DNA of 33,672 nucleotides, taken from UHGV virus genome UHGV-2170543, one strand, 5' to 3'. Shown here piece after piece: positions 3,181-25,070 of the stretch. A model generated the notes under the pieces. It was not told the origin of the DNA. It saw only the letters and a list, made by a program, of their open reading frames with translations, and did not search any database. Position numbers and translations under genes: made by a program. The stretch is from a virus. The stretch's first letter is position 1. Every line of letters begins with the position of its first letter.

Positions 3181-4061
3181 CTAAATACGCACTTTAAGAT
3201 AAGTCAGCCCCGGATGAAGCCAGTAAGCCGGCACTTTTTTAAAGGGTGGAGTATTAAAATCACGAAGAAGAGCCTCCCGCACAATTGCATCCTTATCAGC
3301 ACCACTGGCCAGCGCTTCAATCTCAGCGGCTACCTGAAGATATCCCATGCAACGGCCAACGCGCTTCATCAGCCCCTGCTTTTTATTGTTCTTCAGGTAA
3401 TCAATGGCAAATTCAATGAGCTCCTCACTGTGCTGGTGCGATGGAGGTGTTACTTTCCCATTTTCTGAGATGGTTATTTTCCCAGCATCACCGGATACAA
3501 CAAAGGATGGCCGGTTACACTCCCATTCCAGCTCACTGAAATTATCATTATGAATACTGAAACACTCTGCGAGATTTCTGCTCATCACTTTCCGACAATA
3601 ATCGTCAAACGCAGCAAACTGCTTTTCATCGCCAGAAGGCACCAATATCGACCATTTCTTATTCAGCTCAACGACGTAGCTCTCCAGTTTTTCAATACGT
3701 GATTCAACATCATCTTTTTCTGACCGCAGTGTTGACGGCGGCATCTTCAGAGAACAAGTAATTCTTCCCGGTAGCTTTCCTTTGTAGGTTATCAACACAT
3801 CCTGCGCCTCTAAAATTACGGGGCGCTTTTCCGNNNNNNNNNNNNNNNNNNNNNNNNNNNNTCCATGAAAAACTGCTTCGCCTGCTTTTTCGCCTCAGCT
3901 TCGTAAAACTCCAGCGTGGCACCTTCAGTACGGTCAAGACTAATCGCCACATTTGGCAACAACAGTGACGGATACCCACCAATTTCCAGTACCACAGTAA
4001 CAGTAATCTTATCCGGGTAATTATTTATCCCTTTAACAACCAGTTCGTATTTTTTCTTCAT
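3181..4061 (-). CDS. hypothetical late protein between S and R with a copy-specific about 180-aa C-terminal extension; interrupted by assembly gap
   Basis: N-terminal MKKKYELVVKGINNY... matches copy B gene 33208-33561; after the gap the frame continues ITYKGKLPGRITCSLKMPPSTLRSEKDD... to 3181, whereas copy B stops at ...SLKTPPESQP; frame across the N-run not verifiable. Confidence 0.4.
3834..3861. other. assembly gap (N run, 28 nt) inside S-R intergenic gene
   Basis: Run of n characters; length does not match copy B (about 38-39 nt expected). Confidence 1.
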
Positions 4062-6918: not shown

Positions 6919-7371
6919 GAATCCTCCCGGCCGGGATAATATTGTGAGTAAAATAAGGAGCGGGCTGAAGTCCGGAAGTTACAGGACAATGGCAGAAGAG
7001 AGACGACAGCCCGCAATTCGAAAAAGACCGCGCAGTTGCGCAGCCTTATGAATTCTGGTTAAAATCCATTCGATTATAAAAATGTATATCTCATGCTGTT
7101 GCCCGAACCCACTCGGGCTTTTTTTTGCCCACAAGAAAGCCCCTCCGGAGAGGGGCTAAAGCCGCGTATCTGTATCATCATGCACATGATGCCGGGTGCC
7201 TCCCGGTGAGTTCAGTATCAGCACCTGAACCCGCACAGAAAGGATAAGGGTCGGTGACAAAACACCAGTTGCTGATTGCCCCTCCGCACAGGGGGATTCA
7301 CCATGCCAGTTTCTTTTAACAAACTCCCCGCAAAACAGACAACTGTCAACCGTCTGAATTGTGAGACATTT

Positions 7372-7395
7372 AAAAAAAAGCCCGCAAAAGCGAGC
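7372..7395 (-). terminator. hairpin + U-tract terminator downstream of tRNA cluster (copy A)
   Basis: Minus-sense GCTCGC-TTTT-GCGGGC followed by TTTTTTTT. Confidence 0.45.
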
Positions 7396-7410
7396 CGGGA
7401 AAAATAAGTC

Positions 7411-7487
7411 TGGCGCGTTGTACTGGATTCGAACCAGTGACCGATTGCTTAGAAGGCAATTGCTCTGTCCGGCTGAGCTAATAACGC
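7411..7487 (-). tRNA. tRNA-Arg (anticodon UCU), argN/argO-like phage tRNA
   Basis: Cloverleaf read by hand: acceptor GCGTTAT/ACAACGC (one mismatch), anticodon loop CTTCTAA, T-loop TTCGAAT, 3' CCA. Confidence 0.85.
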
Positions 7488-7500
7488 AGGGTACAGATAA

Positions 7501-7577
7501 TGGACCGCCATCGAGGACTCGAACCCCGCGCAACCAGCTTCGAAGGCTGGCGCTCTATCCTGATGAGCTAATGGCGG
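7501..7577 (-). tRNA. tRNA-Arg (anticodon UCG), phage tRNA
   Basis: Acceptor CCGCCAT/ATGGCGG, D-stem GCTC/GAGC, anticodon loop CTTCGAA, T-loop TTCGAGT with A58, 3' CCA. Confidence 0.85.
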
Positions 7578-7584
7578 TATGTGA

Positions 7585-7660
7585 TGGTGGCCCTTGCTGG
7601 ATTTGAACCAGCGACCTGGCGATTATGAATCGCTCGCTCTCACCACTGAGCTAAAGGGCC
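7585..7660 (-). tRNA. tRNA-Ile2 (anticodon CAU, lysidine type), ileZ-like phage tRNA
   Basis: Near-identical to E. coli ileX-type sequence as recalled; acceptor GGCCCTT/AAGGGCC, anticodon loop TTCATAA, T-loop TTCAAAT, CCA. Confidence 0.9.
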
Positions 7661-16932: not shown

Positions 16933-17558
16933 GCGTTAGTTTCTCCACAACCAGAAGCAATCGACGCCACGACGCCCGGAGCTGCACACTCGCGGGCGTT
17001 ACTCTTTTCCGGCGCACAAAAAACACGAAATAACAGTGTTAAATGCTCCTGCCACTTCGCCATTACTTGGTAGCTGTTCTCTTCGATTTGCTCACGCTCA
17101 GCCTGGTCAATAACTCCATCAGCAGTTGCCTTGCGTAAGTACTGGGAATGCTTGCCAATCCATTCTATTGACTCCATCAGCCGCTGATTAATGTCACCAT
17201 TGTCAATGTCATCAATGACCACCAGCGGCACAAACACCCCATTACTACGACGGGCTATTGCATCCGTTACATGCCTGGTACCACTGGCATCCTGTAAAAC
17301 CATGGCCCACTCAAGTGGAAAAATTTGATCCCCACCGCTACGCAGTCTGTTATGCAATTGATCTTTTGCTGGGGTGATATCATCAGATTTATACAAACCA
17401 AGAATTTCTGCTGCTTCCTCATAGCCATGAGGTAAATCAGCAATCGTTCTTCGTATTGCTGCCACCAGCCATGCTGGTTGCTTATCAACTTTCCATTCAG
17501 GTTCTTTACCCACGTTTAAGCCCTCATATCTGTGGTTTCTGTAAATCGATTTATCCAT
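16929..17558 (-). CDS. hypothetical early protein in cII position (YdaT-like?)
   Basis: About 209 aa from MDKSIYRNH...; directly follows cro; family uncertain. Confidence 0.5.
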
Positions 17559-17751
17559 TAGATTTTTCATAAAGCTCAGGTTTAAATGGCAACCGTCCGC
17601 AAGTTCTATATGCAGCCTCTGCTGCACGTCCTTTTGGAATTAACTGGCCAGGACGGTTTCGCCACTGATAAACGGCTTCAGTTGTTATGCCGAAAAAAGC
17701 AGCAACTTTCTCAATGCTGCCGAAGTAGCTTTCGATATCGTCAGTCGTCAT
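17551..17751 (-). CDS. cro: Cro-like HTH regulator
   Basis: 66 aa; FGSIEKVAAFFGITTEAVYQWRNR HTH; divergent from CI-like repressor. Confidence 0.7.
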   Translation of the reverse strand: MTTDDIESYFGSIEKVAAFFGITTEAVYQWRNRPGQLIPKGRAAEAAYRTCGRLPFKPELYEKSNG

Positions 17752-17848: not shown

Positions 17849-18475
17849 ATGGAAACGGTTGGTCAGCGTATAAAAGCTCTGAGAAGAGTTACCAGAACGT
17901 CCCAGAAAGAATTGGGTAAATTTTGTGGAGTAAGTGACGTTGCTGTGGGGTACTGGGAGAAAGACATCAATGTCCCTGGTGGGGAAGCACTTTCAAAATT
18001 AGCGAAGTTCTTCAATACGTCAATAGATTACATTCTTTATGGTGCGGAGTTTGAAGGCAAACTCGTCACAAACATGCGCAGAGTTCCTGTAATCTCGTGG
18101 GTTCAGGCTGGGCAGTTTACTGAGTGCAGGACAGCAGAAGTGTTTAGTGAAGTAGACAAGTGGGTAGATACATCATTAAAGATTGGTGATAACTCATTTG
18201 CATTGGAGGTTAAAGGCGACTCCATGACTAACCCTAACGGCCTCCCAACAATACCAGAAGGCGCAACAGTGATTGTAGATCCTGATGCAGAACCCCGGCA
18301 TGGAAAAATAGTCATCGCTAGACTTGATGGAACAAACGAAGCCACAGTAAAAAAATTAGTTATCGATGGCCCTCAAAAGTTTTTAGTGCCATTAAATCCC
18401 CGGTACCCCAACATCCCGATCAATGGTAATTGCCTCATCATTGGTGTAGTCAAAGGAGTTCAATACGAACTCTAG
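17849..18475 (+). CDS. cI: CI-like repressor (XRE-type HTH + S24 LexA-like peptidase domain)
   Basis: N-terminal HTH SQKELGKFCGVSDVAVGYWEKD; C-terminal GDSM serine and KKL lysine of the S24 Ser/Lys dyad. Confidence 0.85.
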   Translation: METVGQRIKALRRVTRTSQKELGKFCGVSDVAVGYWEKDINVPGGEALSKLAKFFNTSIDYILYGAEFEGKLVTNMRRVPVISWVQAGQFTECRTAEVFSEVDKWVDTSLKIGDNSFALEVKGDSMTNPNGLPTIPEGATVIVDPDAEPRHGKIVIARLDGTNEATVKKLVIDGPQKFLVPLNPRYPNIPINGNCLIIGVVKGVQYEL

Positions 18476-18641
18476 CCCCCCCTTTTCTCTAACCAAAACA
18501 CCGAACTAAGAAAAGTTTGGTGTTTTCTCTTGCCATTAAAACTAAGTTAAGTTAGATTTTATATCAAAGATAACGAACAGGCAGGACGCCCACGAAGTAG
18601 CCGCCTGGGGCATATGAAGTCCAGGATGATTCGTTAGTACC

Positions 18642-18668
18642 AAAAAAGCGCCCTACCGGACGCTTCGC
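18642..18668 (-). terminator. candidate terminator downstream of 2-TM gene
   Basis: Minus-sense AAGCGTCC-GGTA-GGGCGCTT (one mismatch) followed by TTTTTT. Confidence 0.35.
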
Positions 18669-18831
18669 TCTTTAAAAATCAGTAACCCTCACTTTGGGCC
18701 TGGATCTGGTGGCCTGGGACGAGGTGGAATATGAAAAGGCTCTATTGGTCGACTCATTATCCAATCCTATTATGTCTCATTTCTTCGGTTTCGGTGGTTT
18801 CGGCTTCGGAGGTACATGTCCGTGAACTGGA

Positions 18832-19326
18832 TTATGCTTGTTGGTCATCATTAATATCCGTTAGTTCATTCTCTAGAGGTAGATCTCCCGCACACCAAGC
18901 TATAAATTTTTCTTTGGTTGTTAAATCGTACTTAGTTGGAACACCAGCAAAAATACAGGCCCGAATGAAAGCCGCTCGTTCAAGTGATTTCCATGGATTA
19001 CTATCAGTATCTTGGATTTTTAAATACCTAGCTTGCAACTGATCTTCAGGAAGGGTATCAGACTCAATCAGCAGTCTTTTGTAATGCCTCGCTTGCTCTT
19101 TAGACATTCCAGCCTCTTGGCCAAACTGATAGACCAACTGAAGAACCGAAAGTACGGCAACAAACAAACCGAAAATAAATAAATTACTGTACGGGGCGAA
19201 AACTGAAAAACCGAGAACGATTAACATCAACGTTATTAATTTATCAATGCGAGTTAACAACGTGTAATTCATCTTCTCCAATACATAAGAGTAGTGAACA
19301 TAAAATTTATAATCGTCTCTGGTCAT
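18832..19326 (-). CDS. 2-TM membrane protein in the rex-like slot adjacent to cI
   Basis: 164 aa; two hydrophobic helices (LITLMLIVLGFSVFAPY, LFIFGLFVAVLSVLQLVY) then charged cytoplasmic domain; AT-rich; convergent with cI. Confidence 0.55.
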   Translation of the reverse strand: MTRDDYKFYVHYSYVLEKMNYTLLTRIDKLITLMLIVLGFSVFAPYSNLFIFGLFVAVLSVLQLVYQFGQEAGMSKEQARHYKRLLIESDTLPEDQLQARYLKIQDTDSNPWKSLERAAFIRACIFAGVPTKYDLTTKEKFIAWCAGDLPLENELTDINDDQQA

Positions 19327-19711
19327 ATTAGTCTCAGTTTTCCTTGGGTGGTTTTGGAGGAACTGGAGGCTTTTGTCTTAACGGCACATGCCTCTCCTCA
19401 TACTTATCTACACATAGATCCATATAAATCCTTATCGTTGTTGGGGAGGGTTACATAATAACCAAATCCTTGTTGTTGGGGAATAACCAGGTCCACCTCG
19501 CCTGATGTGGCTAAAAGCAGGCACATAACAGCTAAGTATTTTCAACCAGAGAGAATCCTTAGCGTTGTGGTGAATGCGCAGGCTGATGCGCGAAAGACAT
19601 TGCAGCTATTGCGGAAAAGAGCTGTTCGGCGGGGCAATTAAACGCCCGTGAGAGTCTGAAATAACCGCAAGCCGGAGATCAGCACCGGTCACCACAACAG
19701 CCACTGCTTTG

Positions 19712-19757
19712 GCGGTACCAGTTTGTACCCTTGCTTCCGGCTGGTACCGCTCTTTTT
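19712..19757 (+). terminator. strong hairpin terminator in leader of yfdP-like operon
   Basis: Perfect 10-bp stem GCGGTACCAG/CTGGTACCGC with 19-nt loop followed by TCTTTTT. Confidence 0.5.
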
Positions 19758-19894
19758 ACAAAACAGAGAAGAGCATCACCGGACGACGGGCTCATAACCC
19801 AATCCATCCGGGCGGCTGTCACCGCAGGTGTTCTTCTCTGTTTTGTGGAGAAACCAACCGACCTTGCAGGGTCGGTATGATGAGGAGCAGCAAA

Positions 19895-20257
19895 ATGGCT
19901 AGCGTACGCAGTACTGATGTGCAGGTATTTATCGTAGAACTGGACGGCGGCGTATTTGAAACCAAACTCGGCGCAGTTCTCAGTGAAGTCGCTTCCGGTG
20001 TGATGAACACGAAAAACAAAGGTAAAGTCTCGGTCAATCTGGACATCGAACCGTTTGATGAGAACCGTGTGAAAATCAAACACAAACTCTCATATGTTCG
20101 CCCGACTAACCGCGGGAAAATCTCCGAAGAAGACACCACCGAAACGCCGATGTATGTCAATCGAGGTGGTCGCCTGACTATTCTGCAGGAAGACCAGGGA
20201 CAATTACTGACTCTTGCCGGTGAACCTGACGGAAAACTCCGCGCAGCAGGTCGTTAA
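19895..20257 (+). CDS. YfdP-like hypothetical protein
   Basis: 120 aa from MASVRSTDVQVF with GAGGAG RBS; first gene of a block resembling CPS-53 yfdPQRST by order and lengths. Confidence 0.45.
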   Translation: MASVRSTDVQVFIVELDGGVFETKLGAVLSEVASGVMNTKNKGKVSVNLDIEPFDENRVKIKHKLSYVRPTNRGKISEEDTTETPMYVNRGGRLTILQEDQGQLLTLAGEPDGKLRAAGR

Positions 20258-20322
20258 TATCGTTCGTAATAAACTGATTATTTATCTCATCACTGAATAT
20301 CTTTATATAGTGAGGACTTATT

Positions 20323-21147
20323 ATGTCTCAGAACTTAGACGCAACCGCAATTAATCAAATCCATGCCCTTATTTCTGCTCAGGGTGTTAATGAAATTATC
20401 AGTAAGATTGGTGCCGATGCTGTGGCATTGCCTGAGAATTTCCGCATTCATGATCTGGAAAAATTTAATTTAAATCGCTTCCGTTTCCGTGGTGCACTTT
20501 CCACTGCCAGCATCGATGATTTTACCCGTTATTCTAAAGATCTTGCAGATGAAGGCACCCGCTGCTTTATCGATGCCGATAATATGCGTGCCGTCAGTGT
20601 GCTTAACCTGGGTACTATTGATGAGCCAGGTCACGCAGATAACACTGCCACTCTCAAACTGAAAAAGACAGCACCGTTCTCTGCTCTGTTGTCTGTTAAC
20701 GGCGAGCGTAACTCCCAGAAGTCACTGGCAGAATGGATCGAAGACTGGGCCGACTACCTTGTGGGCTTTGATGCTAATGGTGACGCTATTCAGGCAACAA
20801 AAGCGGCTGCGGCAGTCCGTAAAATCACGATTGAAGCAAACCAGACCGCTGATTTTGAAGATAATGACTTCAGCGGCAAACGCTCCCTGATGGAGTCTGT
20901 CGAAGCGAAGACCAAAGACATTATGCCAGTGGCATTTGAATTTAAATGCGTTCCGTTTGAAGGTCTGAAAGAACGTCCGTTTAAATTACGCCTCAGCATT
21001 ATCACTGGCGATCGTCCTGTACTGGTTCTGCGCATTATTCAGCTGGAAGCGGTGCAGGAAGAAATGGCTAACGAATTTCGTGATCTGCTTGTTGAGAAAT
21101 TCAAAGACAGCAAAGTAGAAACCTTTATTGGTACTTTCACCGCCTGA
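20323..21147 (+). CDS. YfdQ-like protein (DUF2303 family)
   Basis: 274 aa; length and position match yfdQ of CPS-53-type prophages as recalled. Confidence 0.6.
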
Positions 21148-24656: not shown

Positions 24657-24914
24657 ATACAGCGAACGCCATTGGTTTAGTTGGATATTTACTGTGCCGG
24701 ACAAAAACGGTTTGCGGGGAAATCTTAGTTAAGTAGAATGACTGCGGGTGCTTGAGGCTATCTGTCTCAGGCATGAACACCAAAAGGCAGATAGAGAAAA
24801 GCCCCAGTTAACATTACGCGTCCTGCAAGACGCTTAACATTAATCTGAGGCCATATCTATGCGACACATAGAGATTAGCCTCTTACGGACCGAAAGGTCA
24901 AGGAGAAGCAGGCT

Positions 24915-25070
24915 ATGAAGCAGCAAAAGGCGATGTTAATCGCCCTGATCGTCATCTGTTTAACCGTCATAGTGACGGCACTGGTAACGAGGAAAGACCT
25001 CTGCGAGGTACGAATCCGAACCGGCCAGACGGAGGTCGCTGTCTTCACAGCTTACGAACCTGAGGAGTAA
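24915..25070 (+). CDS. hok: Hok/Gef-family type I toxin
   Basis: MKQQKAMLIALIVICLTVIVTALVTRKDLCEVRIRTGQTEVAVFTAYEPEE closely matches the Hok pattern (LTRKSLCEIRYRDG.REVAAF.AYE); short upstream ORF ends in ATGA overlap; palindrome CTATGCGACACATAG upstream. Confidence 0.75.
   Translation: MKQQKAMLIALIVICLTVIVTALVTRKDLCEVRIRTGQTEVAVFTAYEPEE

Follow-up and report, generated by a model that had tools for sequence, protein, structure and literature searches.

The non-coding gap at positions 19327-19894 of the virus genome UHGV-2170543, a 33,672-nucleotide (nt) stretch of E. coli lambdoid prophage DNA referred to here as the window, lies directly upstream of the plus-strand gene yfdP and seems, on balance, to be a modular, structure-rich leader of the early-left transcript. 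Arranged in series within it are apparent relics of a structured RNA cassette, an intact cassette termed type A, a terminator-like stem-loop (SL1), and two further stem-loops (SL2 and SL3), which as a unit head the first early-left gene in many phages of the SfV, ST64B and e14 type, whatever that gene is. The region is neither ordinary promoter DNA nor a known element, and it contains a new and widespread relative of STnc100 together with an unannotated, tRNA-mimicking leader RNA. A first-pass annotation of this DNA had described it as one cis-acting RNA control element, an attenuator or a put-like antitermination RNA, rather than a simple promoter. The features listed there were all located by sequence reading and repeat search, and the preference for RNA over a simple promoter is borne out by conserved RNA structures, but neither of the proposed mechanisms is supported, and the stretch proves to be a chain of separable modules that recombine independently. 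Both the 137-nt structured RNA at 19563-19699 and a third copy of the direct repeat had been missed.

The modular make-up is apparent from BLAST comparisons with phages, plasmids and E. coli genomes, in which the region breaks into separate homology blocks. Phage P1 and ~270 P1-like plasmids share positions 19557-19699 alone, at 98% identity, positions 19690-19900 alone are common to phages such as cdtI and 2H10, and Kati, SfIV and SfV match the full span 19429-19900 at ~82% identity. In T1-like, N4-like (IME11), Vi01-like (Magnus), lambda-like (HK629) and Erwinia phages, the match is limited to the two ends of 19563-19699, the middle differing in both sequence and length. A single slot ahead of yfdP, between CGTTGTGGTGAAT and CACCACAAC, is filled by cassettes of types A, B and C, with type B, whose 3′ end is CCGGGAGGCACCCGG, occurring in Kati, SfV, ST64B and most relatives in IMG/VR. 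The query region is 100% identical to NZ_AP045810, and 2,894 of 5,426 complete E. coli genomes match it in whole or in part; the homologous phages come from Shigella, Salmonella, E. coli and Citrobacter hosts. The early-left leader of very common enterobacterial prophages (SfV, ST64B, e14, CPS-53-like) is full of conserved RNAs that have escaped annotation. The type C cassette (GUUGUGGUAAUCCGCGAAAUGGCGCGG...ACCACAAC), which fills the slot upstream of yfdP in three IMG/VR loci (L127, L131 and L139), is unrecognized by the type A model at E ≤ 1.

The type A RNA (19563-19699, plus strand) is delimited by conserved ends that pair with one another (GUUGUGGUG / CACCACAAC). Its closing stem, P1 (19564-19572 / 19690-19698), is followed by AAU and by a short hairpin, P2 (19576-19579 / 19588-19591), of the form GCGC-AGGCUGAU-GCGC. 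Beyond a variable domain (19592-19670) comes a second hairpin, P4 (19671-19675 / 19685-19689), which reads GCCGG-AGAUCAGCA-CCGGU and stacks on the closing stem. The loops of the two hairpins are complementary, with GCUGAU (19582-19587) facing AUCAGC (19678-19683) in a kissing arrangement. A pattern scan of IMG/VR returned more than 100 type A loci, ~100 of them distinct members, whose variable domains range from ~20 to 190 nt. Compensatory change is seen at 16 of the 26 pairs (191 cells, 63 non-identical cores), a value reached in none of 500 shuffles, and six positions of the closing stem display four to five pair types with almost no unpaired cells. The G-U pairs fix the strand as plus. Covariation in the 5′ loop is not judgeable in this set, as that loop was fixed by the search pattern. 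A second scan, using the pattern GTGAATGCGCNNNNVNNNGCGC, forced a different base into the P2 loop and returned mostly chance matches in GC-rich coding DNA, but it also yielded one member (L426) with loops GGUCGAU and GUUCGAC, in which two adjacent kissing pairs have changed compensatorily, from C-G to U-A and from U-A to C-G. The kissing interaction is accepted as supported, albeit by this one variant.

Relatives of type A occur in lytic phages resembling T1, N4 and Vi01, in P1, in lambda-like phages, and in prophages of alpha-, beta- and gamma-proteobacteria; a scan of genome contigs contributed only three true members among 120 loci (in Kosakonia, Massilia and Rhizobium), the remainder being chance matches. 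No family in Rfam 15 matches type A, either at the gathering threshold or at E ≤ 10, and a full-text literature search with the type A core sequences found no relevant paper; keyword searches on kissing-loop or tRNA-like phage RNAs and on yfdP-associated small RNAs (sRNAs) likewise returned nothing relevant.

The known RNA that type A most resembles in layout is STnc100 (RF02076). Both are built from a closing stem, (G)AAU, a 5′ hairpin, a variable middle, a CCGG-type 3′ hairpin and the returning strand of the closing stem, followed by a linker and a terminator. Both live in lambdoid prophages, often beside tRNA genes, and the 3′ hairpin of STnc100, CCGGGAGGCACCCGG, is the one carried by the type B cassette in the same slot as type A. 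A covariance model (R1) built from 38 type A sequences and briefly calibrated gives the window copy 90 bits, and the matches in the window that rank next are two of the three STnc100 copies found elsewhere in the prophage, at 30111-30228 (E = 8e-4) and 30579-30712 (E = 4e-3). The third copy ranks seventh (E = 0.45), all three are aligned end to end and in register, and R1 also detects type B cassettes (Kati, SfV and ST64B) at E ~1e-6. Because of the shared layout and these matches, type A is, as modeled here, a divergent relative of STnc100. It is not itself a member of the family as Rfam models it, since the STnc100 model finds no match at 19563-19757 at gathering or E ≤ 10, whereas true copies score 132-165 bits. 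The loops of type A (AGGCUGAU and AGAUCAGCA) and their 6-base-pair (bp) kissing pair also set it apart from STnc100, and it differs from both STnc100 and PasD in its far wider range and in that most members have no adjacent terminator. STnc100 and PasD have been described in enterobacterial prophages only, and STnc100 has been tied to the Hfq-associated sRNA PasD in a 2026 preprint (bioRxiv 10.64898/2026.05.13.724894). The type A fold joins these poorly understood RNAs to a larger family, found in lytic as well as temperate phages of three proteobacterial classes, which offers a structural framework and many natural variants for the study of STnc100/PasD-like RNAs. Identification of the type A locus with a Pas sRNA was considered and rejected: the neighbors of PasA, PasC and PasD are Q, holin and esterase genes, and PasB is found within a phage structural operon.

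The genomic surroundings of type A suggest that the RNA may be excised from longer transcripts in the manner of a tRNA. The P1 copy follows tRNA-Asn/tRNA-Thr on the same strand at a distance of 75 nt, the IME11 copy sits inside a 2-kb non-coding island with tRNAs, and the HK629 copy is found between PR′/HNH and the holin gene. A tRNA occurs within 500 nt of 14 of the 98 members, in all 14 cases on the same strand, and a strict terminator follows only 16 of 97. By a crude open reading frame (ORF) call, type A is only weakly co-directional with its flanking ORFs.

Several individual members have features of their own. In the IMG/VR locus L057, type A begins 3 nt past an apparent tRNA 3′ end (GGTTCGAACCCTGCACGCCA), an arrangement that suggests processing shared with tRNAs. 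The variable domain of two other IMG/VR members (L036 and L044) opens with GCGGA-CUUUUAA-UCCGU, which is like the anticodon arm of tRNA-Lys(UUU), and continues with a second hairpin resembling a long variable arm, so that some members may be more fully tRNA-like. A hammerhead-like core noticed by eye in the variable domain of L016 (CUGAUGA...GAAAC) was not confirmed as a hammerhead by Rfam at gathering, and T-arm-like sequences noticed by eye in L058, L098 and L071 (GGUUCGAGUCC / GGUUCAAGUCC) drew no Rfam gathering call for L058 and L098. L058 also carries an Rfam Proteo-phage-1 RNA (3205-3282, minus strand; 77 bits), ~130 nt upstream of its type A RNA and in the same orientation. A possible larger relative of ~320 nt, running from GGGGGUUGGGUGAAUGCGCGCGUCAGCGCGCGGG to GACCCCCCAA, is present in IMG/VR loci L345, L353, L366, L372, L380, L394 and L440; it starts with GUGAAUGCGC as type A does, and its loop and size are different.

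Downstream of type A, the segment 19705-19900 is highly structured, as had been claimed: it folds at -90 kcal/mol as compared with -60.7 ± 4.0 for 200 dinucleotide shuffles, none of which is as good (z = -7.4). The largest element here is SL2 (19758-19846, plus strand), a three-way junction of ~89 nt. The 14-bp perfect inverted repeat noted at the outset (19759-19772 / 19832-19845) is part of it and extends to 25-nt arms (19758-19782 / 19822-19846, 84% complementary). SL2 comprises a long helix, P1 (19758-19776 / 19827-19846); a second helix, P2 (19779-19783 / 19807-19811), which leads to a GGG/CCC helix, P2a (19788-19790 / 19798-19800), closing the loop CUCAUAA (19791-19797); and a third arm, P3 (19812-19825), which is a hairpin of variable length. 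Homologues were fetched with the motif ACGGGCTCATNACCCAATCC from more than 120 loci, and 22 diverse sequences were aligned (alignment A1). Pairing in A1 reaches 99% over the long helix, the CCGGR/YCCGG helix and the GGG/CCC helix, with many G-U pairs, and six pairs have changed compensatorily in 23 cells (for example, C-G in 13 versus G-C in 9, and A-U in 16 versus G-C in 6), which none of 500 shuffles equals. Across homologues, SL1, SL2 and SL3 are all kept as plus-strand RNA structures. The first gene after SL2-SL3 may be YfdP-like, Sb37-like (MSNDRMTVV...) or RdgC-like, and because this gene varies, the unit belongs to the head of the operon rather than to yfdP.

The tip of SL2, CGGGCUCAUAACCC (19787-19800), is identical at 14 of 14 nt to the anticodon stem-loop of the E. 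coli initiator tRNA metY. Positions 19788-19800 read GGGCUCAUAACCC, exactly as in metY, for which the K-12 sequence is ...GUCGGGCUCAUAACCCGAAG... Three consecutive G-C pairs and a CAU anticodon distinguish the initiator tRNA, and in SL2 three consecutive G-C pairs close the CUCAUAA loop, with CAU at 19793-19795. Since homologues had been fetched with a motif, the tip was re-examined in copies found by way of an unrelated upstream element. Of these 30 independently ascertained variants, 29 retain CAU and the other reads CAC, and one variant swaps a G-C pair of the tip for A-U on both sides of the stem; a few variants alter loop positions 32, 33, 37 or 38. Only the anticodon stem-loop has been copied; neither ARAGORN nor Rfam finds a tRNA in 19300-19950. 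For that same interval Rfam offers nothing at gathering or E ≤ 10, the weak matches to ar7, Hammerhead_II and Hairpin (E > 1) being taken as chance. A literature search found no paper on an initiator-tRNA mimic in a phage leader.

Two known systems share part of this arrangement. The thrS translational operator, like SL2, presents a tRNA anticodon stem-loop in an mRNA leader, in that case a mimic of the tRNA-Thr arm that is bound by ThrRS. However, that operator abuts the Shine-Dalgarno (SD) sequence, whereas the SL2 mimic is 75-90 nt from it and a cognate protein for SL2 is only hypothetical. In the metY-rimP-nusA-infB operon, an initiator tRNA element heads the operon, as SL2 does; two terminator-like hairpins come after metY, and weak terminators and RNase III sites follow the tRNA gene before the first ORF. 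Unlike metY, SL2 is not a tRNA and reproduces only the loop and three G-C pairs. The copied arm could mean that tRNA mimicry is used in phage gene control, or that it is a counter-measure to toxins that target tRNA-fMet.

Tentatively, the two principal RNAs might be read together in a more ambitious way. The SL2 tip could be a functional initiator-tRNA arm (a decoy, a sensor or a device for translation control), with type A as a phage scaffold of pan-proteobacterial range; type A would then present a hypervariable "cargo" domain on a framework of closing stem and kissing hairpins, and STnc100/PasD would, just as tentatively, constitute one local branch of it. The narrower proposal that the SL2 head is in essence a decoy or sensor mimicking the initiator-tRNA anticodon arm is unlikely. 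Its conceivable targets are a tRNA-fMet nuclease (the VapC/MvpT PIN toxins of Shigella and Salmonella plasmids), the 30S P site/IF3, or MetRS. VapC of Shigella and Salmonella cuts tRNA-fMet between positions 38 and 39, and both genera are among the hosts of the homologous phages. The 14-nt identity, with its three G-C pairs and CAU, and the near-constancy of CAU alongside the compensatory G-C to A-U stem change, are what would be expected of such a mimic. The proposal is, however, purely sequence-based, and the copy is confined to a 3-bp stem and its loop, with positions 27, 28, 42 and 43 mismatched. The few variants with altered loop positions and the one CAC also count against it, and the hairpin caps a long rod at a distance of ~75-90 nt from the SD, which makes direct steric control of initiation unlikely.

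Between SL2 and the first gene are a linker and SL3. The linker, GGAGAAAC(C/U)A (19847-19856), is single-stranded and near-invariant in A1; RNAalifold indicates that it can also lengthen SL2 P1 by pairing with the U-run of SL1. SL3 (19857-19876), the small hairpin that had been noted before the ribosome-binding site (RBS), reads ACCGACC-UUGCAG-GGUCGGU and is separated from the downstream SD, GAGGAG (19882-19887), by 5 nt and from the yfdP ATG by 18 nt; this ATG is at 19895 and not at 19897. Its loop, (U/G)(U/G)GCAG, is conserved on at least eight different stems across homologues, and the UUGCAG loop often caps SL2 P3 in homologues, though not in the window. A conserved loop on covarying stems, 5 nt from the SD and preceded by a linear GGAGAAAC box, has a geometry akin to boxA-spacer-boxB, and together with the recurrence of the loop on P3 it would suit a reading in which SL2, SL3 or both bind a phage or host RNA-binding protein, whether as a translational operator or as a nut-like linear box plus hairpin, in control of the first early-left gene. 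Such a protein site is improbable as the main function, however, in that no candidate Arg-rich or coat-like protein was identified, the P3 of the window is without the UGCA loop, and the boxA-like CGCUCUUUUUACAA (19747-19760) is confined to the window lineage, homologues reading GUCCUUUUU or GACCUUUUU there. A lambda-type nut site, with a CGCUCUUUAACAA-like boxA, boxB and an N-like Arg-rich protein, was not found, and the earlier observation that no such protein is encoded stands, as no N-like ORF is present nearby. The sequence GTTGTGGAGAAACTAAC, which follows SL2 in homologues, recurs at 16935-16951 (minus strand) as the RBS region of the gene after a YmfL-like ORF.

On the other side of SL2 is SL1 (19712-19757, plus strand), which has a GC-rich stem of 10-12 bp, a loop of 15-19 nt and a terminal UCUUUUU. 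The arms of the perfect 10-bp stem that had been reported, GCGGTACCAG (19712-19721) and CTGGTACCGC (19741-19750), are indeed 100% complementary and 19 nt apart, and TCTTTTT follows at 19751-19757. A hairpin and T-run abut the 5′ side of SL2 in 108 of 125 variants, which among them use at least eight unrelated stems, runs of 5-7 U and loops of 5-43 nt; the T-run is present in 92 of the 95 loci with enough flank. Where a promoter with operators directly adjoins SL2, as in L283, there is no SL1. SL1 is thus conserved by shape and, from its GC-rich stem and U-run, is terminator-like, although a loop longer than 8 nt kept it from being flagged in a consensus terminator scan. The notion that SL1 is simply the terminator of a type A sRNA is weakened by the 16 of 97 members with a terminator and by the way SL1 travels with SL2.

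These stem-loops were the basis for the control element first proposed, in which SL1-SL2-SL3 would govern transcription in cis, either as an attenuator with alternative pairings or as a put-like RNA conferring resistance to terminators. An intrinsic terminator look-alike within the leader, invariant internal-loop nucleotides in SL2 of the kind seen in RNA-polymerase-binding RNAs, the put-like position of SL2 in L283, where it starts ~35 nt past the promoter, and the lack of an N-like protein encoded nearby all lend it some appeal. As an attenuator, however, the arrangement fails on order, because SL2 is transcribed after the SL1 U-run and so cannot affect termination at SL1. Nor is there a conserved alternative pairing: the one candidate between SL1 and SL2 (inverted repeat I3, 19738-19754 with 19769-19785, 71%) is absent from ST64B and phiNP, and the P1 helix of SL2, at 18-24 bp, is too stable for switching. 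The put-like version is no better placed. The put RNA of HK022 is ~70 nt long and consists of two adjacent stem-loops in a V shape (PMC9378689), whereas SL2 is a three-way junction with a closing helix of 18-24 bp. SL2 shows no significant similarity to putL or putR: in local alignment with putL, 19300-19900 scores 23, as against a mean of 18 and a maximum of 37 for shuffled putL and 52 for putR as a positive control. SL2 is also out of position, coming after SL1 and ~1.2 kb from the early-left promoter; only weak terminator-like sites follow on the plus strand up to ~24.7 kb, and the window has a single copy, with none on the PR side. Control of transcription by these stem-loops is accordingly quite unlikely.

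The put-like question shifts instead to a defined 65-nt RNA directly after the probable early-left promoter, PL. This RNA, ACGAACAGGCAGGACGCCCACGAAGUAGCCGCC-hairpin-AUGAUUCGU (18572-18636, plus strand), is the first to be transcribed from PL and is a candidate put-like or RNA-polymerase-acting element. Among 54 distinct variants, its 5-bp hairpin is 94-100% paired, with four to five pair types at two positions (the variants include CCUGG/CCAGG, CCGGU/ACCGG, CCCCA/UGGGG and CUACC/GGUAG), and its closing pair switches from A-U to G-C. It is located ~10-15 nt past at least six unrelated types of promoter/operator, and 98 of its 159 instances have SL2 downstream on the same strand. It is never found without SL1, yet 42 of 95 SL1-bearing loci have no copy within 2 kb, so that a requirement for the 65-nt RNA wherever SL1 is present was rejected. 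With HK022 putL it shares its size, its position as the first RNA from PL, and two short blocks, CGAAC.GGC and AGGAUGA; and HK022 put, like the leader RNAs here, is a cis element in the early transcript of a lambdoid phage that lacks N. In contrast to the two side-by-side stem-loops of put, the 65-nt RNA closes both of its ends into one helix, and it is single-copy, with none on the PR side. The alignment of 18540-18700 with putL scores 19, no better than shuffled putL, and the known 65-nt sequences, which form 11 clusters at 92% identity, are too alike to reach a distant homologue in HK022. Rfam has no match for 18480-18760, and it has no put family, the HK022 put region being likewise unmatched. 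By position and size, 18572-18636 is a better, albeit unproven, put-like candidate than SL2. A bidirectional terminator-like hairpin occurs a short way downstream, at ~18645-18680, and a motif there, CGCUCUUUAA, resembles boxA.

The reading of the stretch as a modular leader depends on where its transcript begins. PL (18530-18558, plus strand; TTGCCA-17-TAGATT) is the probable early-left promoter and the only sigma-70-like plus-strand site within 18400-20400. It is located past the cI terminator and is overlapped by the operator-like AACTAAGTTAAGTTAG, the CTAAG half-sites of which match half-sites in the cI/cro intergenic region. Homologous phages have differing promoter and operator sequences at this place, always just 5′ of the same 65-nt module. 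PL is most likely the source of the leader transcript, which would then start ~1.3 kb upstream. After induction, transcripts from PL would traverse the leader, and a fraction might stop at SL1 or undergo tRNA-style excision, freeing type A as a stable small RNA. Read-through transcripts would bear SL2-SL3, which would act post-transcriptionally. Conceivably, the SL2 helix, at 20-25 bp or about two turns, serves as an entry site for RNase III and parts the mRNA from the upstream RNAs, while the SL2 tip offers its copy of the initiator-tRNA anticodon arm to a factor that normally reads that arm. The tip and SL3, which lies beside the RBS, could thereby control how stable the message of the first gene is or how well it is translated.

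The lambda N leader has a comparable layout. It consists of nutL and then a large RNase III-sensitive hairpin before the N RBS. The order of parts is the same (PL, an early cis RNA, and a long hairpin right before the SD of the first gene), and P1 of SL2, like RNase III substrates, spans about two helical turns. The leader described here differs in having no boxA/boxB and no N, in the conserved tRNA-mimicking head of SL2, in its variable first gene, and in that cleavage is only predicted.

Several points weigh against the modular-leader reading. The promoter, RNA ends and processing sites are predictions from sequence, and RNase III cleavage in SL2 is a guess from helix length. A nearer promoter of an unrecognized kind is possible because a gene for a 164-amino-acid (aa) protein lies antisense between PL and the leader. 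The E-values that tie type A to STnc100 are modest and come from a briefly calibrated model. The loop of SL1 is longer than the 3-8 nt of a typical intrinsic terminator, and SL1 may be part of the SL2 unit and not the terminator of type A, since SL1 and SL2 are linked in 92 of 95 loci as opposed to 16 of 97 type A members with a terminator. Finally, the match to the tRNA arm could be left over from a former tRNA gene, though its conservation argues otherwise.

Upstream of type A, the leader appears to record past exchange of cassettes. The direct repeats of the first-pass annotation are real and number three rather than two, all on the plus strand: copy 1, AATCCTTATCGTTGTTGGGGA, at 19427-19447; copy 2, AATCCTTGTTGTTGGGGA, at 19465-19482; and copy 3, AATCCTTAGCGTTGTGGTGAA (family D1), at 19554-19574. 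The first two share the exact 11-mer GTTGTTGGGGA (family D7), and a degenerate repeat pattern matches twice as against 0.01 expected. Copy 3 is the 5′ flank plus the 5′ strand of the closing stem of type A; copies 1 and 2 read (AAUCCUU..)GUUGUUGGGGA(AU), and copy 1 likewise resembles a cassette 5′ flank and closing-stem 5′ strand. Copy 2 (AATCCTTGTTGTTGGGGAAU) is followed by a hairpin, CCAC-CUCGCCUGAU-GUGG, the loop of which resembles the type A 5′ loop. The segment they form, 19465-19515, is conserved in Kati, SfV and IMG/VR homologues and has the appearance of a degenerate cassette's 5′ half. No matching 3′ strand was found for copy 1 or copy 2, and R1 detects neither. The simplest reading is that these two are probably relics of cassette turnover; the repeats reproduce in part the 5′ edge of a structured sRNA cassette rather than forming a control element in their own right. 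Directly 5′ of type A, another hairpin, GCUAAGUAUUUUC / GAGAAUCCUUAGC (19531-19563, plus strand; inverted repeat I6, 85% complementary), holds the start of copy 3 and is kept together with the type B cassette in Kati and SfV. That the repeats and palindromes act instead as DNA, as repressor operators, other protein sites or recombination sites for cassette exchange, is highly improbable: the three repeats do lie in the divergent region 5′ of the minus-strand 164-aa gene, whose promoter must be near, the CTAAG/CTTAG half-sites at 19531-19563 do resemble operator half-sites, and cassettes do swap between conserved flanks, but compensatory changes and abundant G-U pairs fit only a plus-strand RNA, the 19531-19563 palindrome is kept in phages with different repressors (SfV, Kati), and the stems, unlike operators, vary freely in sequence.

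The genes around the leader are arranged as follows. A Cro-like gene (17551-17751, minus strand) and a LexA/cI-like repressor gene (17849-18475, plus strand) precede PL, and the antisense 164-aa gene, a moron-like gene for a predicted membrane protein (18832-19326, minus strand), occupies the interval between PL and the leader. From 19895, yfdP is followed on the plus strand by yfdQ, yfdR and yfdS. The corresponding locus of the E. coli K-12 prophage CPS-53 (L571, 5248-5604) has lost the whole SL1-SL3 leader: the yfdO-yfdP gap carries tandem GATTTTGACGGGTCA-like repeats instead, and homology returns only at the yfdP SD. With no SL1-SL3, the region upstream of yfdP in CPS-53 is uninformative for the leader.

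Other RNAs are recognized elsewhere in the window. On the PR side, two tandem copies of C4 antisense RNA plus isrK (15479-15667 and 16345-16530, minus strand; 62-81 bits in Rfam) adjoin Rha-family genes and constitute a duplicated antirepressor control module of the P1/Gifsy type. A sok RNA is found at 24746-24917. Triplets of tRNA genes, the three STnc100 copies and an AsxR match are located at 7071-7660 (minus/plus) and 29762-30764 (plus), near either end of the window and on opposite strands, as though the window held two lambdoid late regions inverted relative to each other or were a recombinant prophage.

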